NCBI GenBank assembly: GCA_024641245.1
Contig: JAHEDK010000002.1
Coordinates: forward strand, 167,136-231,135
From: Actinomycetes bacterium
GTDB lineage: Bacteria; Actinomycetota; Acidimicrobiia; Spongiisociales; JAHEDJ01
Reading direction: 5' to 3'
Length of the DNA stretch: 64,000 bases
Part shown: positions 42,372 through 64,000 of the stretch, piece after piece
How the letters are laid out: each line of letters starts with the position of its first letter
Position numbering within the stretch: position 1 is the first letter of the stretch
Translations under genes and position numbers: made by a program
The notes under the pieces: model-generated
The model's database searches: none
The model's input: only the letters and a program-made list of their open reading frames with translations
What the model was told of the DNA's origin: nothing

Positions 42372-42372
42372 G

Positions 42373-42486
42373 TCAGCCCTCCACCCGGCGGCGGACGCTG
42401 CGCAGGCGCACAGTCAAGAACACCGCATATCCGATCATGAAGCCGTACACCACCGTGTAGGCAAAAACGACCCATCCGTTAGACAT
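42373..42486 (-). CDS. ccmD: Heme exporter protein CcmD (37 aa, single TM)
   Basis: Not in the ORF track. Translation is MSNGWVVFAYTVVYGFMIGYAVFLTVRLRSVRRRVEG. Its start overlaps the ccmC end, and its stop abuts the ccmE start. Confidence 0.55.
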   Translation of the reverse strand: MSNGWVVFAYTVVYGFMIGYAVFLTVRLRSVRRRVEG

Positions 42487-43881: not shown

Positions 43882-44534
43882 GATGAGCTCCCCGCGATCA
43901 CGATCCCACCCGTCAGCTCATAGGTCGATTGCACCAGCGGCAGCATGCGATCGAGTTCGTGGGACACGAAGACGGCGGCGCCACCACGGGAACGGACGTT
44001 CTCGACAACTGCGTCGACGAGTTGTCCGGCCTCTCGATCTAGTCCGGCGTGGGCCTCATCGAGCAGCAGTAGGTCGGGCCTGGTGAGAATCACCCTGGCG
44101 AACTCAACTCGCCGCTGCATACCATGCGACGACTGCTCCGCCCGCCGGTGCTTCGCCCCACCCAGCCCGACCACGTCGAGCATCTCATCTACCCGCTCGT
44201 CAGTGTGGCCCGACAACCGGGCGACGAAGGCGAGATTCTCACGCAGCGTCAACTGCGGGTAGAGCGCCGGTTGATGGCCGATCAGCGCGATCCGGCGCCG
44301 GATCGCAAACGCCGTCGCTTCGCCCATCTCGGTGCCGAACACCGCCACCGAGCCCTCCGTCGGTCGCAGCAACGTGGCCAGCACCCGGAGCAGCGTCGAC
44401 TTTCCCGAACCATTCGGCCCAACGATCCCGGCTGCCTCCCCGGACGGTACCGCCAGCTCCACGCCCTTCAATACCGGCACCCGGCCGTATCGAACGGCGA
44501 CGCCGTGCAGCTGCACTGTGGGAGGTGTGGACAT
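43878..44534 (-). CDS. ccmA: Heme exporter ATP-binding protein CcmA
   Basis: Walker A (GPNGSGKST), ABC signature (SHGMQRR), Walker B (LLLLDEA). Start at MSTPPTVQL. Confidence 0.8.
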   Translation of the reverse strand: MSTPPTVQLHGVAVRYGRVPVLKGVELAVPSGEAAGIVGPNGSGKSTLLRVLATLLRPTEGSVAVFGTEMGEATAFAIRRRIALIGHQPALYPQLTLRENLAFVARLSGHTDERVDEMLDVVGLGGAKHRRAEQSSHGMQRRVEFARVILTRPDLLLLDEAHAGLDREAGQLVDAVVENVRSRGGAAVFVSHELDRMLPLVQSTYELTGGIVIAGSSS

Positions 44535-44804
44535 GACAGACGAGTGTACGCACGCAGCTTCGGGCGCCGAAACGCGACCCCGGATAAACACCACCCGTTC
44601 TCTCCCTTTCGCCACCTTTTCAGGGTTTTATGGCGGGTTTCAACCCAGGCAGGGCCCAAGTGCCCCAGGGCGCGAGGACTTTGCGCTGTTGGTGTGTTTC
44701 CGATATACCCGTATCCTCTGCAATGAGAAACGGGGGACCGACCCTGAATCGCCGCCGGAACGGCTCATTCACACGGTGATCCCCATGGAGGAAGGCACAG
44801 CAAA

Positions 44805-46844
44805 ATGAACGCGACCCTCGGGTATCTCTCGATCCTGGCCGCAGTGGTGGGAGCGCTCGGTATCACCGTGCGGGGTTTCATCGCGATGCGTGATCCGGAG
44901 CGGGCGAACAAAGGGTATCTGGGGTTGCCCGTCATACTGTTCGTGTCCGGAGCCGTCGGCGCAATGTTCTTCCTGGAACTCGGGCTTCTCACCGACGACT
45001 TCTCGATCAAGTACATCGCCAACAACTCCTCGACCACCACCCCGTTTCTCTTCAAGGTCGCCTCTGGATGGGCATCGCTGGAGGGATCGATCGTTTTGTG
45101 GGGTCTGGTCCTGGCCGGCTTCACATTCGCCGTATACGCACGGTTCTTCAGAAGCGAAAGCGGCGACCGGCTCGCAGCAGGGGCTCTGGCGATCATGGGG
45201 CTCATCTCTCTTTACTTCTTCGGGCTAATGGCCACAATCTCCGACCCATTCGCTCGCTGCGTGCAAACGTTCAGCGACGGTGTCGGTTGTGTGACCGGCG
45301 AGAACGCGATCCTCGCCAACGTGATCTCCTCCCCGATCGAAGGGCGCGGCGCCAACGCACTGCTCCAGAACCATTGGCTCATGGCCCTGCATCCACCAAC
45401 GCTCTACGTCGGCTATGTCGGGCTCAGCGTCCCCTTTGCGTTTGCCATCTCGGCGCTCCTCCTCAAAACCACCGGGGCGGCCTGGCTGACCCGGACCCGC
45501 AACTGGACGGTGTTCGCCTGGATGTTCCTCACTGCCGGCATTGTTCTCGGTGGGCTCTGGTCGTATGAGGTGCTCGGCTGGGGCGGCTACTGGGCATGGG
45601 ACCCGGTTGAGAACGCCTCCTTCATGCCGTGGCTGGTCGCGACTGCCTTCTTGCACTCGTCTGTCGTGCAGGCGAGGCGCGGGATGCTGCAGTCGTGGAA
45701 CTTCGTCCTCGTCATCACGACCTTCGCGCTCACGATTCTCGGCACCTTCTTGACCCGCTCCGGCGTAATCGTTTCGGTTCACAGCTTCTCGCAGTCCGCC
45801 ATCGGGCCTGCCCTGTTGATCTTCCTGGTGGTCGTGCTGCTGGGATCGCTCGGGCTCTTCGCGTCAAGGGCTCACACCATCGCCTCTTCTCCCCGGCTCG
45901 ATTCACTCAGCAGCCGGGAAGGGGTGTTCTTGTTCAACAACCTTCTGCTCACCGTGTTCGCGTTCATGGTGCTGACAGGGACGCTCTACCCGCTCTTCGT
46001 TGAGGCGTTCTCCGACTCGACGGTGGGCGTCGGTCGTCCGTTCTTCGATCGCATGGCGATCCCGTTGTCCTTCCTGTTGCTGCTGGCGATGGGCATCGGA
46101 CCGGTCTCGCCCTACCGGGCGGCGAGCGCCCGCGTCGTGTGGGAGCGGATTCGCTGGCCCGTCCGGGTTGCCCTCGGCGCCGCCGCGCTGGCCGTCGTGT
46201 TCGGCTATCGGAACTCGTTCCTGCTGCTCGGTGTTCTGGCCGCCGTGTTCGTCATGGGCGTGATCATCCGCAACCTCTACGACGCCGCCCGGACCAGGGC
46301 AGACAAACTCGGTATCGGACGGAGACAGGCCGCCGCCCGGATCATGCGCGGCGACCCGCACTATTGGGGTGGCCAGATCTCCCACCTGGGCGTTGCGATA
46401 CTGGCACTGGGCATCGCCTTCTCAGCCAACCTGTCGGAGACCGCCACGGTGACCATCGACGCCGGAGATACGGTCAACTTCGCCGGCTTCGAGGTGACCT
46501 ACGAACAGGAGTTCAGCCGCCAGGAACCGGGCCGGTTCGTCACCGGAGCAGACATCACGGTGACCCGGGACGGGTCGGTCGTCGGTACGTACCAGCCACG
46601 GCTGAATCAGTACGGCAACACGCGGGAATCGATCGCCACCCCAGAGGTCGACACCATGTTCTCAGGCGACCTGTACCTCTCGCTCCGCAGCATCGATCCT
46701 TCATCCGTGACCCTCGAGGTCTATTGGTTCCCGTTCATCTGGCTCATCTGGGTTGGAGGCTTCCTGGCGGCCGCCGCCGGGGTCTGGGGATTCGCGGTCA
46801 AGAAGCCCGAACGTTCGGTTGCACGGGACGACACGCGTGTCTGA
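44805..46844 (+). CDS. ccmF: Cytochrome c-type biogenesis heme lyase CcmF
   Basis: About 15 TM helices, WWD domain (WGGYWAWDPVEN), conserved periplasmic His. Confidence 0.9.
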   Translation: MNATLGYLSILAAVVGALGITVRGFIAMRDPERANKGYLGLPVILFVSGAVGAMFFLELGLLTDDFSIKYIANNSSTTTPFLFKVASGWASLEGSIVLWGLVLAGFTFAVYARFFRSESGDRLAAGALAIMGLISLYFFGLMATISDPFARCVQTFSDGVGCVTGENAILANVISSPIEGRGANALLQNHWLMALHPPTLYVGYVGLSVPFAFAISALLLKTTGAAWLTRTRNWTVFAWMFLTAGIVLGGLWSYEVLGWGGYWAWDPVENASFMPWLVATAFLHSSVVQARRGMLQSWNFVLVITTFALTILGTFLTRSGVIVSVHSFSQSAIGPALLIFLVVVLLGSLGLFASRAHTIASSPRLDSLSSREGVFLFNNLLLTVFAFMVLTGTLYPLFVEAFSDSTVGVGRPFFDRMAIPLSFLLLLAMGIGPVSPYRAASARVVWERIRWPVRVALGAAALAVVFGYRNSFLLLGVLAAVFVMGVIIRNLYDAARTRADKLGIGRRQAAARIMRGDPHYWGGQISHLGVAILALGIAFSANLSETATVTIDAGDTVNFAGFEVTYEQEFSRQEPGRFVTGADITVTRDGSVVGTYQPRLNQYGNTRESIATPEVDTMFSGDLYLSLRSIDPSSVTLEVYWFPFIWLIWVGGFLAAAAGVWGFAVKKPERSVARDDTRV

Positions 46845-47250
46845 TTCGATTCGCAAGATCGCGGCGGCGGTGGTGACTATCGGCCTGGCGGTTGTCGTCG
46901 TAATCGGCCTCATCCAGGGCGACCGAACCGATGAAGATCGCGCCCGGTCCATCGGCTCCAGAGTGAAGTGTCCCGTTTGCCAGGGCGTAGCCATTGCCGA
47001 TTCTCCTTCGGAAACTGCCAGAGCGATGATGGACGTCGTCGAAGAGCGAATCGCAGACGGGTGGTCGGACAGACAGATCATCGACTACTTCGCGGAGCGC
47101 TACACCGACAGCATCGTCATCGACCCGCCCTTCAGCGGGAATACGCTGCTCGTCTGGCTGCTGCCGATCCTGGCAGTAGTCGCAGGCTTCTTCATGATCT
47201 TCTCCCGGCGCAAGACGCCGGTGCCAAAACCCGATGAGGTGAAACAGTGA
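46837..47250 (+). CDS. ccmH: Cytochrome c-type biogenesis protein CcmH
   Basis: GTG overlaps the ccmF stop (GTGTCTGA). CPVCQG motif, then a TM anchor. Confidence 0.75.
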   Translation: MSDSIRKIAAAVVTIGLAVVVVIGLIQGDRTDEDRARSIGSRVKCPVCQGVAIADSPSETARAMMDVVEERIADGWSDRQIIDYFAERYTDSIVIDPPFSGNTLLVWLLPILAVVAGFFMIFSRRKTPVPKPDEVKQ

Positions 47251-48080
47251 GCAACTTCAACCAGGAGTCATACGATCGGGCGGTCGCCCGCAAGGAACTG
47301 GCCTTGACCGATCTCGAAGAGCTGGCCCAGCAGGTGGACGACGGTGAGATCGACGCGCCCACCGCGGCAGGACTCCGGAGCGGCTACGAGGCTGAACTCG
47401 GCGCGGCCGAAGCCGAACTGGCCAGACTCGGTCCACCGCCCACTCCCAAGAAGTCGCCCGGTCAAGCGTCGACCAAACGTGCGCCGAGCGAGAACGGACG
47501 GCCGGCCCGGAAGTCGAGCGACTTGAATACTCGTCTGCTGGTCGGCGCCGGCATTCTCATCGTCGCCCTCGTCGTGATTCTCATCTCGGTCCAGAATTCG
47601 GCGCAGCCGGATCCGGCCGCGATGGGCACCCAGGTGACGACGGCAAGCGGCGAGGACCCCTGCGCGGAGCTGGCCGACGCGTTGACCAGTCACTCCGACA
47701 ACGGCTTTCGTCTCGCACTGGCCGACTGCTACGCAGACGTCGGAAACGCCATGTCGGCGATCGAGCACTACCGGGCCGTCGCCGATGCCGAAGGTGCCGC
47801 CGACGGCGAGGTCGCACGGGCAAACGTGGGACTCGGCTTCCTCAACCTTCAAATCGGTGAGCTCGCCAAGGCCGCCGACTACATGCGCGTGGCGCTCGAG
47901 CGCGACGCCGCCAACGTCGAAGCTCAATACTTCCTGGGCATGATGCTCGTCTACGACCTCGGCGATCCGGCCGCAGGAGCCCCATATCTCGAGTCGGTAC
48001 TCGCAACTCCCGACCTGCCGGAGACGGTGATCCTCGAAATCCAGGCAGCGCTCGATGTCGCGGCGGGCGAGGGCTCATGA
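47247..48080 (+). CDS. CcmI/CycH-like TPR-containing cytochrome c biogenesis accessory protein
   Basis: ATGA-type overlap with ccmH. N-terminal coiled region, a TM helix, C-terminal TPR-like helices. Confidence 0.45.
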   Translation: MSNFNQESYDRAVARKELALTDLEELAQQVDDGEIDAPTAAGLRSGYEAELGAAEAELARLGPPPTPKKSPGQASTKRAPSENGRPARKSSDLNTRLLVGAGILIVALVVILISVQNSAQPDPAAMGTQVTTASGEDPCAELADALTSHSDNGFRLALADCYADVGNAMSAIEHYRAVADAEGAADGEVARANVGLGFLNLQIGELAKAADYMRVALERDAANVEAQYFLGMMLVYDLGDPAAGAPYLESVLATPDLPETVILEIQAALDVAAGEGS

Positions 48081-48685
48081 CCAACACGGACCTCGCCGTC
48101 GAGCCGACCCCGGAAGCACCGCAACGCAACCTCAAACTGTGGATAACGACCGGCCTGGCGGCGGTGGCCTTCATCGCGCTCGCCCTCGTGTTCAACAGCC
48201 GGTTTGGCGTTGACCCCCGGGTCGTCGAATCCCCGCTCATCGGGCAACCCGCCCCGAACCTCGAACTCGAGGTTCTCGAGCAGGACGCCATCTCTGGCCC
48301 CATGGCAATGTCGGAATTTCGCGGCAGCGTGGTCGTGGTCAACTTCTTCGCCTCTTGGTGCATCCCCTCCTGTCGCGATGAGCACCCCCATCTCACCGCG
48401 GCCGCCGCCGACTACGCCGACCGCGGCGTCCGGTTCGTTGGAATAGCCACCAGCGACACACCCGAAGACACACGCGGGTTCCTCGACGCGCTCGGGTGGG
48501 GAACCAACTACACCTACCTCAACGATCCCGATGCCAGGGCAGGAGTCGAGTTCGGCACATTCGGAGTTCCCGAAACGTTCGTGATCGACCGGGAGGGGCT
48601 CGTCACGCACAAGTTCACGGGGCCGGTCACATACGATGAACTGGTCGTCGAGTTGGAGAAGGCGTTGACCGAGACGGGTTCATGA
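48077..48685 (+). CDS. ccmG: Thiol:disulfide interchange protein CcmG/DsbE (TlpA-like thioredoxin), unusual CxxxC (WCIPSC) active site
   Basis: Membrane anchor plus thioredoxin fold. The active-site DNA reads TGG TGC ATC CCC TCC TGT. Confidence 0.75.
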   Translation: MTNTDLAVEPTPEAPQRNLKLWITTGLAAVAFIALALVFNSRFGVDPRVVESPLIGQPAPNLELEVLEQDAISGPMAMSEFRGSVVVVNFFASWCIPSCRDEHPHLTAAAADYADRGVRFVGIATSDTPEDTRGFLDALGWGTNYTYLNDPDARAGVEFGTFGVPETFVIDREGLVTHKFTGPVTYDELVVELEKALTETGS

Positions 48686-52720: not shown

Positions 52721-52753
52721 CAAGGTTGGGTGTGACAAATCCCGAACCCAGTG

Positions 52754-52872: not shown

Positions 52873-52939
52873 GAGGAGAGACAGAGAAGTGGGGAGCCTT
52901 TCGGCTCCCCACTTCGGGTGTTCGTTAAGCGACTCTTGT

Positions 52940-53935
52940 CTACGGCAGGCGGCCTGCTCCGTGGCAACTCACGCAGAGGGCATCCGGGATGTTCTTCAGC
53001 AAGTACGCCTTGGTAGACGTATGCGGATAGTCGAAGGATGTCCCATCATCGGGATTGCCGTGGCAGCGCGTGCAGCGCGGATGGTTGTTGTGCGTTTCCG
53101 AGTCCACTCTTGGCTCGTGGCACGATCCGCACCACGCATCCGACCCATCCCGTCCGTCCCACACCAGTGGTGCGTTGGCGAACTGGAAGTTCGGGTTGCG
53201 CGACAACAGCTTGTACCCGTAGGCGTACGAAGTGAAGGCATCACCGTCGGAGTCCTCGAGCGTCGCGTAAGCACAGGCAGCGTTGAATCCGTCTCCAAGC
53301 ACCACCGCGCCATCAGCGGCTGCGCACCAATGCCAGACACCTTCGGCCCCGTCGAAATCGAGGGCCAAAGGAGCACCCCTGCTACCAGCGGCAACAGTTG
53401 TGCCCTCATCGGCAGGGTATACCCACTTGTTGATCAATTGGCCGAAGTCACCGTGTGGCGTGTGGCAGGTGCCGCACGACAACGAGCCTTCGACGGCCGA
53501 GTTCGTAGTACGGCCGTCATACCCGAAAATGAACGCACCATCAGGGCTCACCGAAGCCCCCGGCGTGTGTCCGTTCCCCAGGTTGGAGCTGTACACAGCC
53601 CGATCCGAGGCGGTACCCGACGGCGCTGCCGCCGACCAACCAGGTCGCGGACCTGTGGGATCGGCGCCCATATAGCTATGGCAGGTCGCACAGACGGCCT
53701 CGATGCTGGACAACGCCATCAACGCGTAGGCGCCGGCGGCGTCGTGCACGTCGTGACACTGCAGGCAGAAGTCCGTCGAGGCGCTGTAGCCACCGTGGGG
53801 CGACACGTTGCCGTCATAGGGATCTCCTAGTGCTGGTGGCTCCGTCGGCGTCTGCGCGACGGCAGCCGTCATCGGCACCAACAACGCAGCCACCATGCAG
53901 ACAACGAGACCGACGGTTCGTATTCGTCGTCTCAA
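52940..53935 (-). CDS. Secreted hexaheme c-type cytochrome
   Basis: CLQCH, CATCH, CGTCH, CGSCH, CTRCH, CVSCH. Start taken at TTG 53935 (GGGAGGAGG SD 5 nt upstream), giving signal peptide LRRRIRTVGLVVCMVAALLVPMTAAVAQ. Alternative ATG at 53896. Confidence 0.7.
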   Translation of the reverse strand: MRRRIRTVGLVVCMVAALLVPMTAAVAQTPTEPPALGDPYDGNVSPHGGYSASTDFCLQCHDVHDAAGAYALMALSSIEAVCATCHSYMGADPTGPRPGWSAAAPSGTASDRAVYSSNLGNGHTPGASVSPDGAFIFGYDGRTTNSAVEGSLSCGTCHTPHGDFGQLINKWVYPADEGTTVAAGSRGAPLALDFDGAEGVWHWCAAADGAVVLGDGFNAACAYATLEDSDGDAFTSYAYGYKLLSRNPNFQFANAPLVWDGRDGSDAWCGSCHEPRVDSETHNNHPRCTRCHGNPDDGTSFDYPHTSTKAYLLKNIPDALCVSCHGAGRLP

Positions 53936-54249
53936 TTCACCCTCCTCCCGATCGGGCGCTAGCCCGACGTCATGGGAGCCGACCGCTCCCTCCAGTCCCT
54001 TTCCAAACCGTTCCCCGTGCCGCCCTGCGACTCGGGGTGCCCAATCAACGATCAGGATAATCAGACCTTTTAGGTCAAAATATGCCGATAGCACTTGGCG
54101 TATTCATCACTCTATGTGTTTGTCGACACGGCGTCAAGTTGGAGAAGGGCCCCATAACGACAGGGCCGTTCGGCCCTATCAACGAGGCACACCGCACTAC
54201 CGAAATCGGCCGGAACAGGTATTATTTATCTCAGGGTGGCGGAGGATAA

Positions 54250-55752
54250 TTGACCAAACTCGTCAAGTTTCGAGTAATGGGTGTATTTCGTCAGCGGATC
54301 GTGCTTGCGACCACGCTGAGCGTTTTCTTCGGCGTTCTCACGTTCCTGCCGGCTGCAGCCGGGCCCGGCCAACCCGCGGACGCAGCAGCAAGTTCGATGC
54401 CCCTCACAATCCTTGCGATGGCGCAGGCAGCTGAGTTCCCGGATCCCCACGGCCTCCTCAACGCCAACAGCAACGGGTGTCTCTCCTGCCACGACACACA
54501 CGACGCGCCCGGGCCGGCGTTGCTGGCAACTGCCACCGAAAAGGAAGCCTGCTACCGGTGTCACGATGGGAGCGGTGCCACGGCCAACATCCGGGCAGCA
54601 TTCGGTGAGTCGATACTCGGGGAGAGTACCCAACGTTCATACCATCCCCTCCCCCACGCGCTCGACGGATACTCGGTAACTTGTGGCGACTGCCACACGC
54701 CGCATCAGGCTCGATCCGAGTTCACGAAGCTCCTGCGTATCAACGACGGTTCCGGCGGCTGGGTCTACTCGCCGACCGACACACCGATTGGCAACACCTA
54801 CTGCTACCGGTGCCACGGCACCGATTCTCCATTCCCCGCACCATTCGGCGATCAGACCACGTTCGAGGGAGGCGTACACCAGGTGCTCGGTGGCGATCCT
54901 CCCTCGGGATCGGGCATCCAGTGCGTGAACTGTCACGACGGCCACGGTTCGGCCTACCCGGGCCTCTCGCAACAAGAGGCCACCTGCTTCACCTGCCACA
55001 ACACGGCAACGCCCAACACCAACCCCGATCTGCCCTTCGACACCACCGAACTCGAGTACGCCTTCACGGCCGTAGCCAACGACTACGACGCCACCGACGC
55101 CGACGGCTTGATTCGCATCTACCACCACCCCATCGGCGACGATGAACAAGACGGCGGGAGCCGTCGGGTCGAGTGCGCCTCATGCCACAACGCTCATCGA
55201 GTTGACCGCGACTACTCAGGAACTGGGAGCAAGATTTCGAATCCGGGAGACACCCGGGGGGACGTCGCCATTACGTGGACGGACGGCACGTTCACCCGGG
55301 GCACCATCTCACAGTTTTGCGTTGCGTGTCACCAGGACCCGGCCACGACCGCTCCAATCAACGCCGGCACCTGGGTCCCCTACGACATACGGCTCACCGA
55401 CGACTCAGCCGTCCTCAACGGGAGCGGCGGACCCCACGACACTTTCGACGCAACGTACTATTTCACCAACGAACGGTCTGACCACGGTGCGGGCGCCCAA
55501 CTCGCCTGCACCGCCTGCCACGACCCGCATGGCTCATCGAACGCCTACATGTTGCGCGAGAATGTGATCAGCCCTGGCGGAGCGGGTGTGCCCGCCGGCA
55601 CCGTCGGCCCTCGGGTGACCGGATTCGTCGATGAGGACACCCCAGAACAACAGACAATCCTCTCGGGCTTCTGTGGCAGCTGCCACGGCGATCACCACAC
55701 CCCCAACAGGCTCTGCACACAGTGCCACAATCACGGATCGCCGCGGTTCTGA
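54250..55752 (+). CDS. Secreted undecaheme c-type cytochrome
   Basis: 11 CxxCH (CLSCH, CYRCH, CGDCH, CYRCH, CVNCH, CFTCH, CASCH, CVACH, CTACH, CGSCH, CTQCH). TTG start with GGAGG SD and signal peptide. Alternative ATG at 54277. Confidence 0.75.
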   Translation: MTKLVKFRVMGVFRQRIVLATTLSVFFGVLTFLPAAAGPGQPADAAASSMPLTILAMAQAAEFPDPHGLLNANSNGCLSCHDTHDAPGPALLATATEKEACYRCHDGSGATANIRAAFGESILGESTQRSYHPLPHALDGYSVTCGDCHTPHQARSEFTKLLRINDGSGGWVYSPTDTPIGNTYCYRCHGTDSPFPAPFGDQTTFEGGVHQVLGGDPPSGSGIQCVNCHDGHGSAYPGLSQQEATCFTCHNTATPNTNPDLPFDTTELEYAFTAVANDYDATDADGLIRIYHHPIGDDEQDGGSRRVECASCHNAHRVDRDYSGTGSKISNPGDTRGDVAITWTDGTFTRGTISQFCVACHQDPATTAPINAGTWVPYDIRLTDDSAVLNGSGGPHDTFDATYYFTNERSDHGAGAQLACTACHDPHGSSNAYMLRENVISPGGAGVPAGTVGPRVTGFVDEDTPEQQTILSGFCGSCHGDHHTPNRLCTQCHNHGSPRF

Positions 55753-55936
55753 TGACAGACCCGACCTCCATCACCCGGCGAATGCCATTGGGCCCTACAG
55801 GACACAATTCGACCGCGGGTACCGTCGCGTTAGGACCCGCGGGTGCTGTCAGGAACCGCGGATTGGGCCACATGGGAGAGAGGCGAGGGCCCGCAATGGT
55901 TTGTGAATGCCGTGAGTGGTCGAGAGGGGGCCCACG

Positions 55937-56362
55937 GTGTTGATCACCCGCGAGGTCGACTACGCCGTGCGCTGTGTTCTCGACGTAGCCCGCACCGGGC
56001 ACACCTCCACCGGAGCAGTCGCCGAACGGGCCGGGATACCCCCATCGATCCTCGGGCGCATCGTGGCGGCTGTATCGAAAGCCGGCATACTCACTACCAG
56101 ACGAGGAGTCAAAGGCGGCATCGATCTTGCGCGCGATCCAAGCGAGATCAGCCTGCTTGACGTCATAGAGGCGGTGCAAGGTCCGCTCTTCGTCAACATC
56201 TGCTGCGAGCATCCCGAAACCTGTGACGCCGCTACCAACTGTCCGATCCGACCCGTCTGCGAGGACGCCTTCGACGAGCTGAGACGGGTCTTCTCGGTGA
56301 CCTACGACACATTGCTCAACGGCGGCCACGTTCCTCTCCGCCCGTTCGTCCAAGAGGAGTAG
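55937..56362 (+). CDS. Rrf2 family transcriptional regulator (IscR/NsrR-like, three conserved Cys)
   Basis: N-terminal wHTH (LITREVDYAVRCVLDVA). Cys triad (NICCEHPETCDAATNCPIRPVC), the spacing of Fe-S-binding Rrf2 proteins. Confidence 0.75.
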   Translation: MLITREVDYAVRCVLDVARTGHTSTGAVAERAGIPPSILGRIVAAVSKAGILTTRRGVKGGIDLARDPSEISLLDVIEAVQGPLFVNICCEHPETCDAATNCPIRPVCEDAFDELRRVFSVTYDTLLNGGHVPLRPFVQEE

Positions 56363-56423: not shown

Positions 56424-57296
56424 ATGAAGCGACGAACCCAGCTTTACGCGCTCGGCGGACTCCTCATTGTTGTTTCGTTTGCCGCCTGGCGGTTGACGGA
56501 CGATCCGGCAATCGAACCACCGCTGATCCCGATCGCAGCAACCGCCGTGGTCGCAGACTCCGACTTCGACGCGTGCCTCGAGTGCCACGACGACATCGAG
56601 CAATCCCTCCAAGCCGGACTGGTGCAACTCATCGGATTTCGACACGAAGAGCACTTCTCGAATTCCGGCGACGTCGGTTGCGGCAACTGCCACGGTCTCG
56701 ACACGCACGATCGCACCCCGCCGCAGGCACCGACCATGGAGGATTGTTTTTCGTGCCACCTCGACGCCGGGCCGGCTGCCGAGTTGCCGTGTCTCCGCTG
56801 TCACGACAACGCCACTGTGCCACCGCCGCAGAGCCACTTCACCTCAGAGTGGCGCGACGTTCACGGCTCCGGCGCCCTGCTCAGCCAGTCGCTGTGCGAG
56901 ACCTGCCACTCGCGACAAGATTTCTGCACGGCGTGCCACGGTGTCGATATTCCGCATCCAGACGGATGGACCGGCTATCCACACGCACGTGCGACGTTCG
57001 ATTCGGGCATCGAGTCGTGTGCACGCTGCCACGAGCGCGGTCCGGAACTGACGGCTCGCGACGAATGTGACGGCTGCCACCATCCGCAGAACCCCGCAGA
57101 ACCCATCTGGAAGGATGCTCACCCAGAGGTGGTCCGAAGCCAGGGTGGCTCGACGTGCTTCGAGTGCCACGACCCCAACACATGCGCCACATGTCACACA
57201 TCGGGAGTTGAAGACTTCTCCGCCGATCTCAACCGGCTCGAAGTGCCCGGCCCACCAAAGGTCACGGAGTCACCGCCCGAGGACGGTGACTCGTGA
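56424..57296 (+). CDS. Membrane-anchored decaheme c-type cytochrome
   Basis: N-terminal TM helix. 10 CxxCH (CLECH, CGNCH, CFSCH, CLRCH, CETCH, CTACH, CARCH, CDGCH, CFECH, CATCH). Confidence 0.8.
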   Translation: MKRRTQLYALGGLLIVVSFAAWRLTDDPAIEPPLIPIAATAVVADSDFDACLECHDDIEQSLQAGLVQLIGFRHEEHFSNSGDVGCGNCHGLDTHDRTPPQAPTMEDCFSCHLDAGPAAELPCLRCHDNATVPPPQSHFTSEWRDVHGSGALLSQSLCETCHSRQDFCTACHGVDIPHPDGWTGYPHARATFDSGIESCARCHERGPELTARDECDGCHHPQNPAEPIWKDAHPEVVRSQGGSTCFECHDPNTCATCHTSGVEDFSADLNRLEVPGPPKVTESPPEDGDS

Positions 57297-58309
57297 GTCT
57301 GTCCCCGGTACCCATCGGACCGGCGGGACGCTCGCCCGGAATCCCATTCCCGGCACCACCGACCGCCCTCCGGCGATTCTCAACGCAACCACCGCCACCT
57401 CCCGACGGCGAGCCATCTCGCCGTCCCGAGCTTCGTGCCCTCGGTGACGGGGCGGGCTCGGGAAGGGACAACAGGGCATCGGAGCCACGCGGGTCTCGCT
57501 GGCTTCGGCGCCTCGTCATCATCGTCGCGACCGTCGGCGCCCTCGTATTCGTCGCCTCCTGGAGCTACGCCTCGTCATCGCGCAACATGTGCGGAAGCTG
57601 TCATAGCGTCTCGGCGGCTGCAGAATCCGCCGGTGATTCGGTGCACGCAGATATCCCGTGCCTCGCCTGCCACAGGCAAGCGGGCATCGTCGGAGCGTTC
57701 ACCTACCTCCCTGTGCTGCTGCGCGAGTCTGTTCACGAGCTGACTGGACTCTCTATCGCCGAAGGAGTGCTCGACCCCGTCGGATGTGGTTCTTGTCACT
57801 CTTTCCTATCCGACGCGGCGGCGCGAGGCGATCATCCGGACGAGACAGCAGAATGCTCGTCCTGCCACGGCAACGTAGCCCACCCGGGAGCCGGGACGGC
57901 TCCGGAAGGGGACGGCCATCCGTCCGGGTTCTTCGCTTTCCACGGCCGGGATTCCGTCGCTTCGCCCGGATCATGCGCAGAATGCCATAAGAACGACTTC
58001 TGCTCGGCCTGCCACTTCCGCACGGAGTATCCGCATCCGGAAACCTGGACGTCGCTCCATGGTCCGGCGTCAATCGAAGGCGGCCCCGCTGCTTGTGTGA
58101 TGTGCCACGAGCCCACGTACTGTTCGAGCTGTCACGGCGCCGACATCCCCCATCCGGACAACTGGTTCGAGATCCATCATCGGGCAACCGACCCGGCAGT
58201 CGGGTCGGCCTGCCTATCGTGCCATGCAGCCTCCGAGTGCTCCTCCTGCCACGTCCGGCACTCAGTTCACAACGAGCAAGGGCTCTACCAGTGGGACCTC
58301 AAGCCATGA
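57293..58309 (+). CDS. NapC/NirT-like membrane-anchored decaheme c-type cytochrome (candidate quinol dehydrogenase)
   Basis: GTG overlaps the upstream stop. TM helix, then SSRNMCGSCH...CLACH, typical of NapC/NirT N-termini. 10 CxxCH in total. Confidence 0.75.
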   Translation: MSLSPVPIGPAGRSPGIPFPAPPTALRRFSTQPPPPPDGEPSRRPELRALGDGAGSGRDNRASEPRGSRWLRRLVIIVATVGALVFVASWSYASSSRNMCGSCHSVSAAAESAGDSVHADIPCLACHRQAGIVGAFTYLPVLLRESVHELTGLSIAEGVLDPVGCGSCHSFLSDAAARGDHPDETAECSSCHGNVAHPGAGTAPEGDGHPSGFFAFHGRDSVASPGSCAECHKNDFCSACHFRTEYPHPETWTSLHGPASIEGGPAACVMCHEPTYCSSCHGADIPHPDNWFEIHHRATDPAVGSACLSCHAASECSSCHVRHSVHNEQGLYQWDLKP

Positions 58310-59157
58310 AAGGCATCCGGGTGCTCATGACTGTGGTCCTCACTCTCGTACTCGCTGAGGTGACGCTCGTGGCCTTCGTGACCTTCTCCGAGGATGCCCG
58401 GGGCGCGGTCACCGACGCGTGGGCCAAGACCGTGAACGCGTGGGCCGGCTCGGAGGAGCGGGCAGGCAATTTCGAGCTGCTCCTGTCGTCTGCAGACGAG
58501 TTCGCTGCTGAATGGGTCCAGCCATTGTGGAGCGCGCCGGAGGCGGCTCCGGCCGGCACCGGATTCTCCGAATGCGTGACCTGCCACACGGATTACGCCG
58601 AACGTCGCCTGTTCACCGGCGTCTTCATGAATCATCCACTGCATTCGGAGTTGGGAATCGCGTGCGCCGAATGCCACACCGACGTTGCGCATCCCCTCCC
58701 TCTCCCTCCGGCCGAAGAGACTTGTGCAGGGTGCCACAATCAAGTCGAACGAGACGGCCCGGCCTCCGACTGTAGCTATTGCCACAAACCTGGCTCGCTG
58801 GCGCACTATCAGTCACTTGGCGTTCCCGACGGAGCCGCCAACTGCAGCACCTGCCACCTTCCGGATTCGTTCGGGCACACCGATCAGCACGCCTTGACGG
58901 TTACTCCAAGCTTCGATGGAACCGATTCCGCCGTCTGCCTCAACTGCCATCAGGCGGCCGCCTGCGCTCGATGCCATGATTCCTCCCACCCGGCCGACTG
59001 GGTATCCCTTCACGGCGCAGAGGTCCAGGACGCCGGTACCGGCGCCGGCTCCTGCGCGGCGTGTCATTCGACAAACTGGTGCGCTGGAGCCTGCCACCTG
59101 AGTGGAACTCTCCAGGGCGGCAGGCTGCTCCCCCTACCGATCGGAGACGATGACTGA
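58306..59157 (+). CDS. Membrane-anchored octa/nonaheme c-type cytochrome
   Basis: ATGA overlap. N-terminal TM helix. 8 CxxCH plus one CxxxCH (CAGACH). Confidence 0.75.
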   Translation: MKGIRVLMTVVLTLVLAEVTLVAFVTFSEDARGAVTDAWAKTVNAWAGSEERAGNFELLLSSADEFAAEWVQPLWSAPEAAPAGTGFSECVTCHTDYAERRLFTGVFMNHPLHSELGIACAECHTDVAHPLPLPPAEETCAGCHNQVERDGPASDCSYCHKPGSLAHYQSLGVPDGAANCSTCHLPDSFGHTDQHALTVTPSFDGTDSAVCLNCHQAAACARCHDSSHPADWVSLHGAEVQDAGTGAGSCAACHSTNWCAGACHLSGTLQGGRLLPLPIGDDD

Positions 59158-59819
59158 TGGCGAATCGACGAACCTTGCTCGTGCTCGTGGGCACGATCGG
59201 TGCGGTGGCAGCTGCTGCGGCCATCTGGATCGTAGGCGGCGCCGATCCGGATCCACTCATCGCCGAGGTGGATGGGATTCCGATCCGGCAATCACAAGCG
59301 GACTCGCGGATTGAAGGCATCGCCTCGATTCACGGCGACATCACGACGACGCTCGGTAGCGAGTGGAGAGCCACCGTGCTGCAGTCCCTCGTCGATGACG
59401 TGATCGTTCAGATCGAAGCCGACCGGAGATCCCTCGAACCGACCGATGCCGATCTCGAACAAGCAGTCGCCGATACCAAGGCAATGGTGGGTACCGATGC
59501 GGACTGGGAGATCTGGCTTACGGACCAGGGGCTCGACGACGAGGAAGTTGAGCGGCGCCTGACCACCCAGATCAGGACCAACCGTGTGTACGACGCGGTC
59601 ACCGCCGATGTGACTATCGCGCGCACCGACCTCGAGGCCTACTACGAGGCGAACCTCGACCAGTTCACCGTCGACGGCGCCGTCAGAGAACTCTCCGAGG
59701 TCGAAGAGCAAATCAAGGTGGCCGTTGAAAGCATGATGCGAGATCGCGTCTACGCCGAGTGGATCGACGCCCGCCGGGCCGAAGTCATCCTGGAGGTGGT
59801 GCACGATGACTGGCGATAG
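59157..59819 (+). CDS. SurA-N-like membrane-anchored chaperone domain protein
   Basis: Overlaps the upstream stop by 1 nt. Signal-anchor, then an acidic helical domain resembling the SurA N-terminal chaperone region. No PPIase domain seen. Confidence 0.45.
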   Translation: MANRRTLLVLVGTIGAVAAAAAIWIVGGADPDPLIAEVDGIPIRQSQADSRIEGIASIHGDITTTLGSEWRATVLQSLVDDVIVQIEADRRSLEPTDADLEQAVADTKAMVGTDADWEIWLTDQGLDDEEVERRLTTQIRTNRVYDAVTADVTIARTDLEAYYEANLDQFTVDGAVRELSEVEEQIKVAVESMMRDRVYAEWIDARRAEVILEVVHDDWR

Positions 59820-60480
59820 GCAACCCGCCGACAGGGAGCAGAATGTCAACGTCCTCCTGGTCATTGTCGGCTTGTTGACGCTCCTCGTGGTCGGGCTCGG
59901 TGCAGCCGTTGTCTTCATCCAACTCAACTCCGATCCGGTCCCCCAGACGGTTGCCGAACGGGACCTCAATCTCTGGCTGCGCCTCGCCGACGACAATCCT
60001 GATGCCGTATGGGCACAGGTCGGCCTGGGGCAAGCACACCTGGCAGGCCAGGATATGGAGGCCGCCCGGGCTGCCTTCGCAGCGGCCCTGGCCATCGATC
60101 CGGCTTCGCCGGAAGCACTGTTCCAGATGGGGCTCCTCGTCCGAGCAGAGGATCCGAATCTGGCCGTCGATTACCTTCGGCGAGCCGTCGAAGCCGCAAC
60201 GGGAGCAGACAAGGCGCGCCCGAACCTGGCGCTCGGAGATCTTCTGATGGAGCGAGGCGACTGGGAAGCGGCGCGGCTGGCCTATGAGTCGTCCATAGCC
60301 AATCTCCCCTTCCTATTGCCCGCGCACCTGGGACTTGCCCGGTCCCTCGAAGCGCTCGGTGACTCCGACGGTGCCCTTGCCGCCTACCTCCAGGCCTCGG
60401 CCTTCGATCCGACGGATCCCGAGATCAAGGAGGCGATCACTCGCCTCGGAGGCACCCAACCCGAGACAACGAACCCGTAG
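59806..60480 (+). CDS. Membrane-anchored TPR repeat protein
   Basis: TM helix, then three or four TPR-like repeats (AQVGLGQAHLAGQDMEAARAAFAAALAIDP...). Confidence 0.55.
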   Translation: MTGDRQPADREQNVNVLLVIVGLLTLLVVGLGAAVVFIQLNSDPVPQTVAERDLNLWLRLADDNPDAVWAQVGLGQAHLAGQDMEAARAAFAAALAIDPASPEALFQMGLLVRAEDPNLAVDYLRRAVEAATGADKARPNLALGDLLMERGDWEAARLAYESSIANLPFLLPAHLGLARSLEALGDSDGALAAYLQASAFDPTDPEIKEAITRLGGTQPETTNP

Positions 60481-60488
60481 GAGCACCG

Positions 60489-61655
60489 ATGGACAGACCA
60501 CCACCAGGACCGATTGCGCACCAGCCACCGCCGTCTCCAGCGCCGGAATCGGGCAATGCCACCCAGACCACTCGCCGCCTAATGATCGGCATGATCATCG
60601 TGCTGTCACTCGCTGCCATCGGCCTGCTCATCCTCCTCCTGTTGCTCCTTCGATCCGGGGAGGAGCCCCAGTCGCTGGCGATGCCCGACGATTGCCCGCT
60701 CGACATCTCCCGCTCGGTATACGGATACGGAGCGGAGTTGGATCAGTTGCTCAACAAGCCGCTGGCCGTCACATTCGACGGCAGTGAGAACCTCTGGGTC
60801 TCCGATACCGGGAACGGGCGGGTCCTGGCACTCGACACCGATGGGAACCTTCTCAGAATCATCGGCACCGAGGAGGGGGCCGGCCGAATGTTCAGCCCGT
60901 ATGGCCTCGCCTTCGATGAGACCTACCAACGGCTCTACGTTGCCGACTGGACAGCCCGATTCGTGTTCATCTATTCGCCGGACGGGCGGTACATCGAGCG
61001 CATACCCGCAGATGACCAGGATTTGACGATCTTCGGCGAAGCCGGGTTCACGCCGTTCCATGTCGAGGTATGGGGGGCGCAGATAATCGTCTCCAGCAAC
61101 GATGGGCTGTATTTCTTCGACCGGGCGGGGCATGTCACCGACCACTGGGGCCAACGTGGGGCTGAGGCCGGGGAGTTTGCGTTCCCCGATGCCTTCGACA
61201 TCGACCGCACCGCCGGAACGTTCTACGTCGCGGACACTCTCAATCGTCGGGTCGTCGCACTCGATTCCGCAGGCGAAGTCCTGTGGATCTCCGGCCGGCC
61301 AGACCAGGCAGGGGCAATCACCGGGTTCTGGCAGCTCCCGCGGTCTATCACCGTCGGGCAGGACGGAAATGTGTACGTCGTCGACACATTCAGGGCGCAG
61401 GAGAAGTGCTCCGGGATGGGACACGTTGTGGTGCTCGATCCCGGCGGCGAACTCGTCTCCGAATTTGGAGCGGCCGGCAGCCAGGAATGGGCGTTCAGTT
61501 TCCCGGAGAAGCTCGCAATCGGTCCAAACGGTACATTCGGGCTCGCTGACCGAGAAAAGGGTCGCGTGGTGGTGTTCGACGTTGGACAGCTTCCACCGGC
61601 CGACGAGTCCGAGGCGGACAAGTACCTGCAATCGTTCACCCGCTTCGATGATTGA
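60489..61655 (+). CDS. Membrane-anchored NHL-repeat (six-bladed beta-propeller) protein
   Basis: Leucine-rich TM helix, then repeated NHL-like blades (NLWVSDTGNGRVLALD; RLYVADWTARFVFIYS; TFYVADTLNRRVVALD; NVYVVDTF...; RVVVFD). Confidence 0.65.
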   Translation: MDRPPPGPIAHQPPPSPAPESGNATQTTRRLMIGMIIVLSLAAIGLLILLLLLLRSGEEPQSLAMPDDCPLDISRSVYGYGAELDQLLNKPLAVTFDGSENLWVSDTGNGRVLALDTDGNLLRIIGTEEGAGRMFSPYGLAFDETYQRLYVADWTARFVFIYSPDGRYIERIPADDQDLTIFGEAGFTPFHVEVWGAQIIVSSNDGLYFFDRAGHVTDHWGQRGAEAGEFAFPDAFDIDRTAGTFYVADTLNRRVVALDSAGEVLWISGRPDQAGAITGFWQLPRSITVGQDGNVYVVDTFRAQEKCSGMGHVVVLDPGGELVSEFGAAGSQEWAFSFPEKLAIGPNGTFGLADREKGRVVVFDVGQLPPADESEADKYLQSFTRFDD

Positions 61656-61799: not shown

Positions 61800-62909
61800 A
61801 TGCGCACCAAGCTGCAAGGGTTCGCTCTGTGGGGGATGCTGTTCTTTGCCGTCGTCGGACTCACGGCCCTGTCGGCCGACCCGGCCTCAGCGCAGGATTC
61901 CGCCGACTCGGAAGTCAACAACTACTGCCTGGGATGCCACGAATCCGGGAACATCATTCTCACGTTCCCGTCGGGGGAGATGCTTCCCGCCGTGGTGCCG
62001 CGTACCGTTTTCGACGCCTCTATCCACGGTCAGGTCGGCCTCACCTGCATCGCCTGTCATACCGATATCGGGCAGTACCCACACGACCCCATGTCGGCCG
62101 TCACCCGGCGAGACCTGGCGATCGAGTTGTACACCACGTGCTTCAACTGCCACGAGAGCGAATACACCGACACGCTCGACAACATGCACACCGAAGCTCT
62201 CGCCGGCGGCAACCGGGAAGCCGCCGTCTGCACCGACTGCCACGGCGCTCACAACGTCACCCACCCCAGCGTCGACACAACGGCCATCCCGCGCACCTGC
62301 CGGAACTGCCACTCCGAGATCTACGACCTGTACGCCGGCAGCATCCACGGTGCCGCCCTACTCGAACACGACAATCAGGACGTTCCAAGCTGCACGAGTT
62401 GTCACGGCGTCCACAGTGTTGAAGGACCCTCGCACTCGCAATTCCACCTGTTCTCACCGAAAATCTGCGAGGACTGCCACGCCGATGAAGCTCTCATGGG
62501 CAAGTACGGGATCAGCACGGCGGTCTTCGACACCTACGTAGCCGATTTCCACGGCACGACGGTCATGCTCTTCGAGGAACTGGCGCCCGACCAGAAGACC
62601 AACTCGCCGGTCTGTATCGACTGCCACGGCGTGCACAACATCCTGGCCGCCAACGAGGTCGACTCGACCGTCTACAAGGAGAACCTGCTCCTCACCTGTC
62701 AGCGGTGCCACCCAGACGCCACCGCCAACTTCCCCGACTCGTGGATGAAGCACTACCAACCGACCTCCGACCAGGCGGTCCTTGTCTGGCTGGTCAATTG
62801 GTTCTACCGACTCGTCATCCCCGGCGTCGTGGGGGGCATGCTCGTCTGGGTGACGATCGACGGCATTCGCCACTTGCAGCATCGACGGAAGGCGGCCGAG
62901 AGTGTCTGA
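61800..62909 (+). CDS. Nonaheme c-type cytochrome with signal peptide and C-terminal TM anchor (CbcL periplasmic-domain-like)
   Basis: 9 CxxCH (CLGCH, CIACH, CFNCH, CTDCH, CRNCH, CTSCH, CEDCH, CIDCH, CQRCH). C-terminal helix WLVNWFYRLVIPGVVGGMLVWV. Confidence 0.8.
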   Translation: MRTKLQGFALWGMLFFAVVGLTALSADPASAQDSADSEVNNYCLGCHESGNIILTFPSGEMLPAVVPRTVFDASIHGQVGLTCIACHTDIGQYPHDPMSAVTRRDLAIELYTTCFNCHESEYTDTLDNMHTEALAGGNREAAVCTDCHGAHNVTHPSVDTTAIPRTCRNCHSEIYDLYAGSIHGAALLEHDNQDVPSCTSCHGVHSVEGPSHSQFHLFSPKICEDCHADEALMGKYGISTAVFDTYVADFHGTTVMLFEELAPDQKTNSPVCIDCHGVHNILAANEVDSTVYKENLLLTCQRCHPDATANFPDSWMKHYQPTSDQAVLVWLVNWFYRLVIPGVVGGMLVWVTIDGIRHLQHRRKAAESV

Positions 62910-64000
62910 CGTCCTTGAGCGCGCAGCAGTCGACGTCGAACTGGACGATCGGATACTGCGTTTTGGAAAGGCGGATCGCATCGAGCATGCGGTCCAGGTA
63001 ATCAGCTTCGCCGGCCTCGGCCTCACTGGGCTGATCCAGAAGTTCTTCGAGTCGGCGATTTCTCAGTGGTGGATTGAGTTCCTTGGTGGGTTGCCACAGG
63101 TGCGCGTCATTCATCGCTGGCTGGCGACCATCCTCATGCTCGCCGTCATCTGGCACTTCGGTAAAGCCGGATATCGCACGTACGTCGAACGGCGACCGCG
63201 AGCCATGGTCCCGAGCAAGCGCGACTGGATTGCCATCAAGGAATCGATCGCGGTGCTGGCGGGACGGCGTCACGAACCTGTGAAACAAGGTCGATTCACG
63301 TTCGCGGAGAAGGTCGAGTACTGGTCGTTCGTCTGGGGCACCGTCTTGATGATCGCCACCGGCTATATGCTGTGGAACCCGATTTCCACCGCCAAGTTCC
63401 TCCCCGGTGATTTCATCCCGGCCGCCAAAGCGGCACACGGTGGAGAAGCGATCCTGGCTGTGCTGGCCATCCTCGTCTGGCACATCTACCACGTGCACAT
63501 CAAGCATTTCAACAAGAGCATCTTCACCGGCTACATCAGCCGGGCAGAGATGATCGAAGAACATGGCCTCGAACTCGAGGCGATGGAGGCGGGCAAGACC
63601 GGTCCGCAGGCGACACAAGCCGAGATTGTGGAGCGGCGGCGCAAGTTCCTTCCCGCCTTCGGTGTTGTGGCGGTCCTCATGATGGCCGGCATCTACTGGT
63701 TCGTGAGCTTCGAGGATACGTCGATCGCCACCATCGAGCCCATCGAAAACGTGGTGGCATACAAGCCACTGCCTCCTGAACAGCAGAGCGGCCCGGCGCT
63801 TTCTGGTGACAATCCGCTCCCGACCATCGTCATCCCCGACACCACCCTCCCCACCGAGACGACGGTGCCGCAGGGTGAAGTCACATGGGCCACGGTTGGG
63901 CCCGTTCTGGCCGATAGCTGCGGTACGTGCCATTCGGCCTCGAACTCCATGGGCGGGCTCGACCTTTCGTCGTACGAGGGGGCGCTGGGTTCCGAGGGAG
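62902..64000 (+). CDS. Di-heme b-type cytochrome (FdnI/HydC cytochrome b561 family) with C-terminal c-type heme domain; 3' end outside window
   Basis: Not in the ORF track because it has no stop in the window. GTG overlaps the upstream stop (GTGTCTGA). Four TM helices with His ligands (HRWLATILMLAVIWH; HGGEAILAVLAILVWHIYHVH). The C-terminal soluble region has CGTCH. Confidence 0.6.
   Translation, partial: MSDVLERAAVDVELDDRILRFGKADRIEHAVQVISFAGLGLTGLIQKFFESAISQWWIEFLGGLPQVRVIHRWLATILMLAVIWHFGKAGYRTYVERRPRAMVPSKRDWIAIKESIAVLAGRRHEPVKQGRFTFAEKVEYWSFVWGTVLMIATGYMLWNPISTAKFLPGDFIPAAKAAHGGEAILAVLAILVWHIYHVHIKHFNKSIFTGYISRAEMIEEHGLELEAMEAGKTGPQATQAEIVERRRKFLPAFGVVAVLMMAGIYWFVSFEDTSIATIEPIENVVAYKPLPPEQQSGPALSGDNPLPTIVIPDTTLPTETTVPQGEVTWATVGPVLADSCGTCHSASNSMGGLDLSSYEGALGSEG

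Follow-up and report, generated by a model that had tools for sequence, protein, structure and literature searches.

In the field of extracellular electron transfer, it is still unclear by what means very long multiheme cytochromes are folded, loaded and positioned in bacteria that have no outer membrane, and a compact gene block of an uncultured actinobacterium bears on this question. The block occupies positions 56424-61655 of a stretch of 64,000 nucleotides (nt), hereafter the window, taken from contig JAHEDK010000002.1 (positions 167,136 to 231,135) of the Actinomycetes bacterium assembly GCA_024641245.1. It is composed of six genes, g1 to g6 (Table 1), in which three multiheme cytochromes (g1, g2 and g3) are followed by a SurA-like protein (g4), a tetratricopeptide repeat (TPR) protein (g5) and an NHL beta-propeller protein (g6). 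The question is what the last three do beside the cytochromes. We read the cassette as a membrane-tethered electron conduit of about 29 hemes that carries its own non-redox helpers in uncultured Actinomycetota, and give this reading a probability of roughly one in two.

The six open reading frames (ORFs) on the plus strand were confirmed; all are co-directional, with neighbours overlapping or nearly touching. Identical gene boundaries were called independently on four Logan contigs/assemblies of the same organism, and the exact sequences of the g1-g6 products are present in a public protein collection (6/6). The G+C content of the third codon position also favours the plus-strand frames over the long shadow ORFs of the minus strand. 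Read directly from the sequence, g1 and g2 overlap by 4 nt (GTGA, 57293-57296), g2 and g3 by 4 nt (ATGA, 58306-58309), g3 and g4 by 1 nt (TGATG, at 59157) and g4 and g5 by 14 nt (59806-59819). A spacer of 8 nt (60481-60488) separates g5 from g6; the initial annotation had given 9 nt. The overlapping start of g2 is forced, since GTG at 57293 is the sole canonical start codon upstream of its transmembrane (TM) helix. The view that the six genes form one translationally coupled unit is borne out by these overlaps, and the coupling is kept in relatives too. Consensus scans for promoters and terminators found nothing on the plus strand within the block, although such scans are uninformative for an actinobacterium of 63% G+C, and an Rfam scan of 41-64 kb gave zero matches. 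As had been annotated, each of the six products has a single N-terminal hydrophobic stretch, weakest in g1 (Kyte-Doolittle 1.64), and the AlphaFold2 models of g4 and g6 have helices there. All six products are tethered to the cytoplasmic membrane by one predicted N-terminal helix.

Among the cytochromes, g2 had been singled out for a NapC/NirT signature at its N-terminus, and the likeness proved to go further than that. The protein starts with a cytoplasmic Pro/Arg-rich tail, followed by a hydrophobic helix at about residues 69-90 and by the first CxxCH at residue 100, an arrangement of a single N-terminal TM helix leading directly into heme. A profile of 13 orthologues aligned with the NrfH chain of PDB entry 2j7a_C (E=3.6e-11) over NrfH residues 4-151 of 159; the alignment spans the TM helix, and all four CxxCH are aligned. 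The window protein itself stays under the family cut-offs, with 21.7 bits against 24.1 for Pfam Cytochrom_NNT (PF03264) and 27.4 bits (2.8e-6) against 134 for NCBIfam NrfH (TIGR03153), and both matches are confined to the N-terminal third of a larger protein. Because the profile match spans nearly the whole NrfH chain, g2 is predicted to combine a complete quinol-dehydrogenase module of the NrfH/NapC type, which normally oxidises (mena)quinol on the outer side of the membrane, with six additional hemes in one chain. It resembles NrfH, NapC and CymA in the TM helix followed by four CxxCH, and differs from NrfH in the six further hemes of the same chain and in its variable cytoplasmic tail. The first heme lies in the conserved sequence W-x-R-x-x-S-S-x-x-F-C-x-x-C-H; the methionine of the NrfH heme 1 motif CxxCHxM is found in about half of the g2 orthologues and is absent in the window (CGSCHSV).

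The heme motifs of g1, g2 and g3 are invariant across 12-15 orthologues of each protein. In g1, the 10 CxxCH are invariant among 14 orthologues and are accompanied by nine invariant non-motif His and Met105, giving ten candidate distal ligands for ten hemes. In g2, 10 CxxCH and 11 non-motif His are invariant, giving eleven candidates for ten hemes. Since the invariant His and Met suffice for six-coordination of every heme, g1 and g2 look like pure electron carriers and not enzymes; no CxxCK motif was found in g1-g3. The third cytochrome is different in two respects. Its last heme motif is a CX3CH (CAGACH, residues 259-264, window 59080-59097; mostly CADRCH in orthologues) that the initial annotation had not listed and that is invariant with the others in 15 orthologues. 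Its six conserved His and Met108 make about seven distal ligands for nine motifs, so that two hemes may depend on a ligand from a partner protein or have an open site. The TM helix of g3 contains an invariant Glu18, and its C-terminus reads LP-x-x-GVRP in most orthologues and LPIGDDD in the window. Profile comparison indicates that the three cytochromes share a homologous six-heme extension: the C-terminal six-heme part of g1 is homologous to that of g2 (hhalign 99.8%), and g3 has the extension in common with g2 (hhalign 99.5%).

The protein encoded after the cytochromes, g4, matches Pfam SurA_N_3 (4.3e-8; 33.6 bits, cut-off 27.2). Searching the PDB with the single sequence returned nothing useful and a family profile was required, which matched LIC12922 (3e-9) and SurA (1.6e-6) in both their N and C segments, as well as PrsA and trigger factor. 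The AlphaFold2 model (predicted local distance difference test, pLDDT, 91.6) has a helix at residues 4-26, and its top Foldseek matches are the SurA core (in BAM-SurA complexes; TM-score 0.71-0.76, target-normalised), Cj1289 and LIC12922. No rotamase/parvulin domain was detected in g4 or in about 40 representatives of its family (215-268 amino acids), and the next relatives beyond the family, of 309-363 amino acids, carry PF00639. In an exhaustive search of 1.84 billion cluster representatives, only 24 sequences related to g4 passed E<=1e-30 and 46 passed E<=1e-10. With few exceptions they measure 215-268 amino acids, and to judge from these the g4 family is small and specialised. The model and the profiles identify g4 as a putative SurA/PrsA/PpiD-family chaperone core minus the isomerase domain. 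It is like SurA in its N-plus-C core fold and like PpiD in its N-terminal TM anchor; it is unlike SurA, PrsA and PpiD in having no parvulin domain, and its fold match to PpiD is weak (E=0.055). The pairing of g4 with g5 also recalls PpiD and YfgM at the Sec translocon (PDB 8zht), where the partner is a TM-anchored TPR-type protein of about 220 amino acids. A library protein of 1662 amino acids (P0180) contains 16 separate stretches that match g4 residues 17-68, and is either a highly repetitive g4 relative or else an assembly artefact.

In g5, a TM stretch at residues 11-42 precedes an extracytoplasmic TPR domain, where TPR families match residues 54-206, several Pfam TPR families being above cut-off. 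Two families linked by name to known helpers were matched weakly: TPR_CcmH_CycH (PF23914) by 12 of 13 orthologues, beside many other TPR families, and TPR_21/YfgM (PF09976) by 8 of 13, with a best E-value of 2.3e-5. The last product, g6, matches Pfam NHL with 2.1e-16 (59.5 bits, cut-off 20) and, in profile searches, TRIM-NHL proteins, the PknD sensor, SOQ1 and NHLRC2; TRIM-NHL domains and the PknD sensor domain are its nearest solved folds. Its AlphaFold2 model (pLDDT 89) shows a TM helix at residues 24-55 and six blades, and Foldseek aligned it with the NHL domains of TRIM2, TRIM71 and Thin (E down to 1e-19; TM-score about 0.85, target-normalised), so the modelled protein is a canonical six-bladed NHL propeller. 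An enzymatic role for g6 was rejected: zero His or Cys are invariant, and the invariant Asp, Asn and Arg belong to the repeated NHL structural motif. There is no CxxCH in g4-g6, in agreement with the earlier statement that these three proteins have no redox motifs.

The association of the three helpers with the cytochromes is conserved well beyond this organism. A genome scan, based on the alignment of NHL homologues with one genome per species, yielded 15 loci; according to their record titles, 13 are metagenome-assembled genomes of uncultured Actinomycetota/Actinomycetes, one is a Planctomycetaceae and one is the unclassified 'Bacterium HR12'. The order g1-g2-g3-g4-g5-g6 was found in 12 of the 13 genome loci with upstream sequence, at 31-55% amino-acid identity. 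The short overlaps and spacers between cassette genes are kept in relatives, and in each of the 11 genome loci carrying both g4 and g5 these two genes share 4-26 nt. A metagenome scan anchored on the SurA-like gene added 32 loci: g3 lies directly upstream of g4 in 26/26 of those with room, and g5 (with g6 where the contig continues) lies downstream of g4 in 21/25. Distant versions, in which the NHL protein has 44-47% identity, also have cytochromes and then SurA_N, TPR and NHL genes, and the same holds for locus L060, a paralogous or related cassette. The L061 contig carries a WhiB gene, which fits the Actinomycetota labels. Chance adjacency is ruled out, because dozens of loci retain this gene order although their proteins are only 30-55% identical. 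The helper proposal was to be rejected if the NHL, TPR and SurA-like genes proved widespread in relatives that lack multiheme cytochromes, and it is not refuted on this count: among about 55 related loci, retrieved through conserved peptide patterns and sampling orthologues only, each g4 or g6 orthologue that was seen had multiheme cytochrome genes beside it. In particular, g4 was never found separated from g1-g3.

The composition of the cassette is more variable than its order. The window has six genes, as annotated; most relatives add a seventh, for a small single-pass membrane protein of about 105 amino acids with no Pfam match, which lies between the g1 and g2 homologues (L005-L018, L020-L023, L029-L054). 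It can be recognised by the conserved sequence ELWLVVLFMALAFGAG...APPLTxEQIQQGLPSGHPD and the Gly-rich tail behind it. At window 57297-57500, the Pro-rich tail of g2 occupies a shorter interval where relatives encode the small protein. The idea that this tail is a relic of the small protein was not established, since the local alignments reach only z = 1-4 against shuffles and are of low complexity.

Nor do the six genes of the initial annotation behave as a fixed unit in every relative, where the TPR-NHL pair may be absent or joined to another cytochrome. A lineage of 75% G+C has the order rrf2-hemA-g1-small-g2-g3-g4, where small is the small membrane protein gene, with no TPR-NHL pair downstream. 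In L011, the TPR-NHL pair directly follows a homologue of an 11-heme cytochrome, without g1-g4. In L061, all that stands between the SurA-like gene and the NHL gene downstream is what is left of the TPR gene (8821-9001): a TM-like piece and, in another frame, a C-terminal piece with FDPSSSEV…LKRL; the cytochromes upstream have no CX3CH motif. Since the TPR-NHL pair is missing in the first lineage and reused in L011, and its TPR gene has decayed in L061, the cassette is made of two sub-modules: the cytochromes with the SurA-like gene, and a more mobile TPR-NHL pair. A role of g5 as a helper for the CX3CH of g3 was also considered and rejected, as this motif is kept in the 75%-G+C lineage without g5 downstream and the 11-heme cytochrome that precedes the pair in L011 has no atypical motif.

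If the cassette works as an electron conduit, g2 would take electrons from the quinone pool and pass them to g1 and g3 on the outer side of the membrane; these would hand them to the larger cytochromes encoded nearby and finally to an extracytoplasmic acceptor, the reverse direction being possible as well. Because of its SurA-core fold and its strict linkage to g1-g3, g4 may be a holdase for apocytochromes, which would keep these long Cys-rich chains unfolded after Sec exit until the adjacent System I (Ccm) attaches the hemes. The g5-g6 pair would form a protein-binding platform that assists the assembly or stability of multiheme cytochromes at the membrane. In this role g5 would resemble the operon-specific TPR apocytochrome chaperones NrfG and SirG, working beside the general CcmI; SirG of Shewanella is a second, operon-encoded TPR apocytochrome chaperone that acts with CcmI (PMC6976685). 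With NrfG, SirG and CcmI (PMC6976685) g5 has in common that it is a TPR protein anchored in the membrane whose gene accompanies those of particular multiheme cytochromes; the genome also has ccmFH and a TPR protein in the CcmI position. An assembly-helper role of g4-g6 is plausible. We also tentatively put forward a more specific version, which we consider rather unlikely as a whole: g4-g5-g6 would be a dedicated extracytoplasmic assembly machine for multiheme cytochromes in monoderms, in which g4 as a membrane-tethered, isomerase-free holdase of the SurA type and g5 as a TPR adaptor would stand at the Sec exit like PpiD-YfgM, and g6 would pass apocytochromes on to System I and also dock the proteins once they are complete.

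The genes that surround the cassette are listed with it in Table 1. The gene immediately upstream encodes an Rrf2-family protein, and most related loci likewise have an Rrf2 gene ahead of the cassette; it probably encodes the regulator of these genes and may even be the first of them. Upstream of it, at 55800-55865, there are three close boxes containing CCGCGG, partly palindromic, that may be an operator. Downstream, g7 has 9 CxxCH and matches the DmsE family (9.8e-14), and g8, which overlaps g7 in the window and is 500 amino acids long in L003, matches Pfam Ni_hydr_CYTB (5.6e-12) and PSCyt1 (5.1e-14) and the NCBIfam formate dehydrogenase gamma family (9e-15). Together g7 and g8 are a candidate second quinol-oxidising module, which we take to resemble a split version of Geobacter CbcL. 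Both occur near the NHL gene in L005, L010, L011, L020 and L061, being frequent but not constant neighbours.

Table 1. Coordinates of the cassette genes and of neighbouring features in the window.
Feature	Position	Strand	Product	Details
g1	56424..57296	+	membrane-anchored decaheme c-type cytochrome, 290 aa	10 CxxCH
g2	57293..58309	+	decaheme cytochrome, 338 aa	tail, TM helix, NrfH/NapC/NirT-type tetraheme module (predicted), six-heme extension
g3	58306..59157	+	membrane-anchored cytochrome, 283 aa	8 CxxCH and one C-terminal CX3CH
g4	59157..59819	+	membrane-anchored SurA/PrsA-type chaperone core (predicted), 220 aa	no parvulin domain
g5	59806..60480	+	membrane-anchored TPR protein, 224 aa	about 4-5 repeats
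g6	60489..61655	+	membrane-anchored six-bladed NHL beta-propeller (predicted), 388 aa	
Rrf2-family regulator	55916..56362	+	Rrf2 protein with Cys-rich C-terminal part	Pfam Rrf2 3.1e-27; 61 nt upstream of g1
g7	61800..62909	+	nine-heme cytochrome	signal sequence, C-terminal TM helix; 144 nt downstream of g6
g8	62902..64000	+	FdnI/HydC-type diheme cytochrome b with C-terminal c-type domain	cut by the window end
System I ccm cluster	41949..48685	- (ccmE, ccmC, ccmB, ccmA); + (ccmF, ccmH)	cytochrome c maturation	
Divergent multiheme cytochrome pair, first gene	52940..54094	-	multiheme cytochrome, 384 aa	
Divergent multiheme cytochrome pair, second gene	54250..55752	+	multiheme cytochrome, 500 aa	11 hemes

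A complete ccm cluster lies 8 kb upstream of the cassette (Pfam: CcmE 2.6e-25, CcmC-type 8.8e-26, CcmB 3.7e-26, CcmF_C 1.4e-66, CcmH 2.4e-28), with ccmF and ccmH 8-10 kb upstream. On the plus strand it also holds a TM- and TPR-containing protein in the CcmI position and a TlpA/CcmG-like thioredoxin (AhpC-TSA/Redoxin). Cultured actinobacteria use System II (ResBC/CcsBA), and the presence of System I in the window is therefore unusual. Related loci show comparable neighbourhoods: ccmF or ccmH adjoins the cassette in L008, L016 and L022, and hemA and Rrf2 genes adjoin it in other genomes. Homologues of the divergent cytochrome pair of the window follow g6 in L006 and directly precede the TPR-NHL pair in L011. 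Two further multiheme cytochromes are encoded at 48795-49484 and 49527-51698. The latter is a ten-heme protein of 723 amino acids with a lipoprotein-like N-terminus (…LAAC), in which two similar five-heme halves can be recognised by eye, the sequence AYPYFF…WTPRLL[KR]AAYNYQ…KDPGAFAH appearing twice. Between the multiheme cytochrome genes, a minus-strand gene at 51797-52912 encodes AbiEi antitoxin C-terminal and MTES_1575 nuclease-like domains and possibly represents a defence or mobile-element gene that was inserted into the cytochrome island. Farther upstream, at 34102-37669, a Rieske protein precedes a large fusion protein in which a cytochrome b C-terminal domain is joined to about six class-I/cbb3-type c domains; this looks like an unusual bc-type complex, and the same arrangement is seen at L060.

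Several results weigh against a conduit with helpers of its own. All relatives of the cassette are metagenome-assembled, and its composition is not fixed, the small membrane protein being missing in the window and in the closest relative, L056. The tight translational coupling of the block suggests stoichiometric production, which is unusual for chaperones. The evidence for g5 is generic: its score for TPR_CcmH_CycH (PF23914) is 24 bits, under the cut-off of 42, and homology to the known helpers was rejected after hhalign comparison of the g5 family with E. coli NrfG (7.9%), E. coli YfgM (3.7%) and the CcmI-position protein of the window (33%). Its similarity thus appears to be of the general TPR kind only. 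Unlike NrfEFG and SirEFG, no second CcmF/CcmH pair was found beside g5, which sets it apart from NrfG and SirG with their dedicated CcmF/CcmH paralogues. Finally, of all the cassette proteins g6 is conserved best, its mean pairwise identity being 57.5% where the cytochromes reach 47-52%, a level that a permanent subunit with many contacts would explain no less well than a helper.

That last point leads to an explanation that we regard as possible though doubtful, in which g4-g6 are permanent structural subunits and not transient assembly factors. Tethered to the membrane and without redox function, they would form a frame that keeps the heme domains of g1-g3, and of other cytochromes, in register. 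The conservation of g6 is in line with it, and so are the common topology of the six proteins, the conserved start/stop overlaps and the conserved TM residues of g3 (Glu18), g5 and g6, which suggest helix packing within the membrane. A partner could also supply the distal ligands that g3 lacks in its own chain for about two of nine motifs, in the way that NrfA supplies the distal ligand to NrfH heme 4. The behaviour of the other components is harder to reconcile with a frame. The least conserved member of the cassette is g4 (mean pairwise identity 37.6%, 7% invariant columns), unlike a rigid structural subunit, and the known relatives of its chaperone fold bind unfolded clients; moreover, the TPR-NHL pair is dispensable in cis, as it is absent in one lineage, reduced by the TPR remnant in L061 and reused in L011. 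The chaperone-or-scaffold role first proposed for the three proteins stands in part: the SurA-core fold of g4 fits it, and the data are equally compatible with permanent subunits. The further proposal that they position large heme proteins across a thick cell wall found no support; all six products are tethered to the cytoplasmic membrane.

The cytochromes themselves could be explained without an extracellular conduit, as an ordinary respiratory branch, either a quinol:acceptor oxidoreductase chain acting on a soluble nitrogen or sulfur compound or a feeder of the nearby Rieske/cytochrome b complex, with the Rrf2 protein as an NsrR/IscR-like sensor. NrfH-type modules normally serve periplasmic reductases, the Rrf2 regulator is near the cassette in most related loci, a Rieske/cytochrome b/multi-c complex adjoins the cassette in L060 (directly after it) and L020 (before it), and no large surface-type cytochrome lies within 10 kb in L008 and L016. 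We nevertheless judge this explanation improbable: the cassette contains no reductase gene, neither CxxCK nor any other recognisable catalytic heme is present, g1 and g2 can be fully six-coordinate, and no fewer than five additional multiheme cytochromes, the lipoprotein-like one of 723 amino acids among them, are encoded in the window, as is usual where electrons are transferred out of the cell. Much the least probable is that g6 is no cytochrome partner at all and serves as a ligand-binding sensor or adhesin for a wall component or mineral surface, like the extracellular domain of PknD. It does resemble the PknD sensor domain in fold and TM-anchored topology, and adhesion has been suggested for the Geobacter NHL protein Gmet_0556, as cited in bioRxiv 10.1101/2022.05.06.490989. 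Against such a function, g6 has about 27 cytoplasmic residues and no signalling domain, a tethered propeller would be unable to reach past the wall, and the gene is found without exception beside cytochrome genes and in most cases next to the TPR gene, from which a spacer of 3-42 nt separates it.

Comparable gene sets are known from other bacteria. The Uet cluster of Candidatus Tenderia electrophaga and some Gallionella (bioRxiv 10.1101/2022.05.06.490989; PMC10734462) also combines multiheme cytochromes with a peptidyl-prolyl isomerase (PPIase)/SurA-type protein (UetB), NHL proteins (UetH, UetI), a TPR protein annotated as NrfG and maturation genes, and no function is known for its non-redox members. 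The comparison was made at the level of shared domain families. Uet belongs to diderm Proteobacteria and has the beta-barrel porin UetC, a cupredoxin, triheme c7-type cytochromes, the undecaheme UetJ and System II CcsAB. The cassette, in contrast, has no porin among its six products, 10, 10 and 9 heme motifs, System I maturation and a SurA-like protein without isomerase domain, and every component is tethered to the cytoplasmic membrane. In Dethiobacter alkaliphilus, which is cultured and treated as Gram-positive, NHL and TPR genes occur within multiheme cytochrome clusters that include CymA/NapC-like quinol oxidases, and these genes, according to the authors, may function in secretion, orientation and the assembly of complexes (PMC10376724). 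In Desulfovibrio ferrophilus, the NHL proteins DFE_0451 and DFE_0463 are encoded in multiheme cytochrome clusters (PMC9769857). These clusters come from different phyla, are loose in composition and have no reported SurA-like gene, whereas the order described here is fixed and translationally coupled; the comparison was made by gene type. The idea that NHL and TPR genes serve as scaffolds or in assembly is already published (PMC10376724; bioRxiv 10.1101/2022.05.06.490989). What is new here is the actinobacterial host, the rigid coupled order and the isomerase-free, membrane-tethered SurA core, together with the NrfH-decaheme fusion, the link to System I and the modular variants. No published description of this actinobacterial cassette was found, in a literature coverage that is incomplete and does not prove its absence.

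NHL, TPR and isomerase-like genes recur beside multiheme cytochromes, none of them with a demonstrated role, and the cassette is a compact, rigidly ordered and widely conserved case in a phylum not known for cytochrome-based electron export. Its natural variants, with or without the TPR-NHL pair and with or without the small membrane protein, are a natural experiment for comparative genomics, and as a small and well-defined gene set it is suited to heterologous reconstitution. If g4-g6 are indeed a dedicated assembly machine, they would represent an unrecognised accessory layer of cytochrome c biogenesis, which would account for the repeated presence of NHL, TPR and PPIase-like genes next to multiheme cytochromes in phyla that are not related. 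Should the making of holo-cytochromes depend on the helpers, the same conclusion would apply to the clusters of Uet, Desulfovibrio ferrophilus and Dethiobacter.

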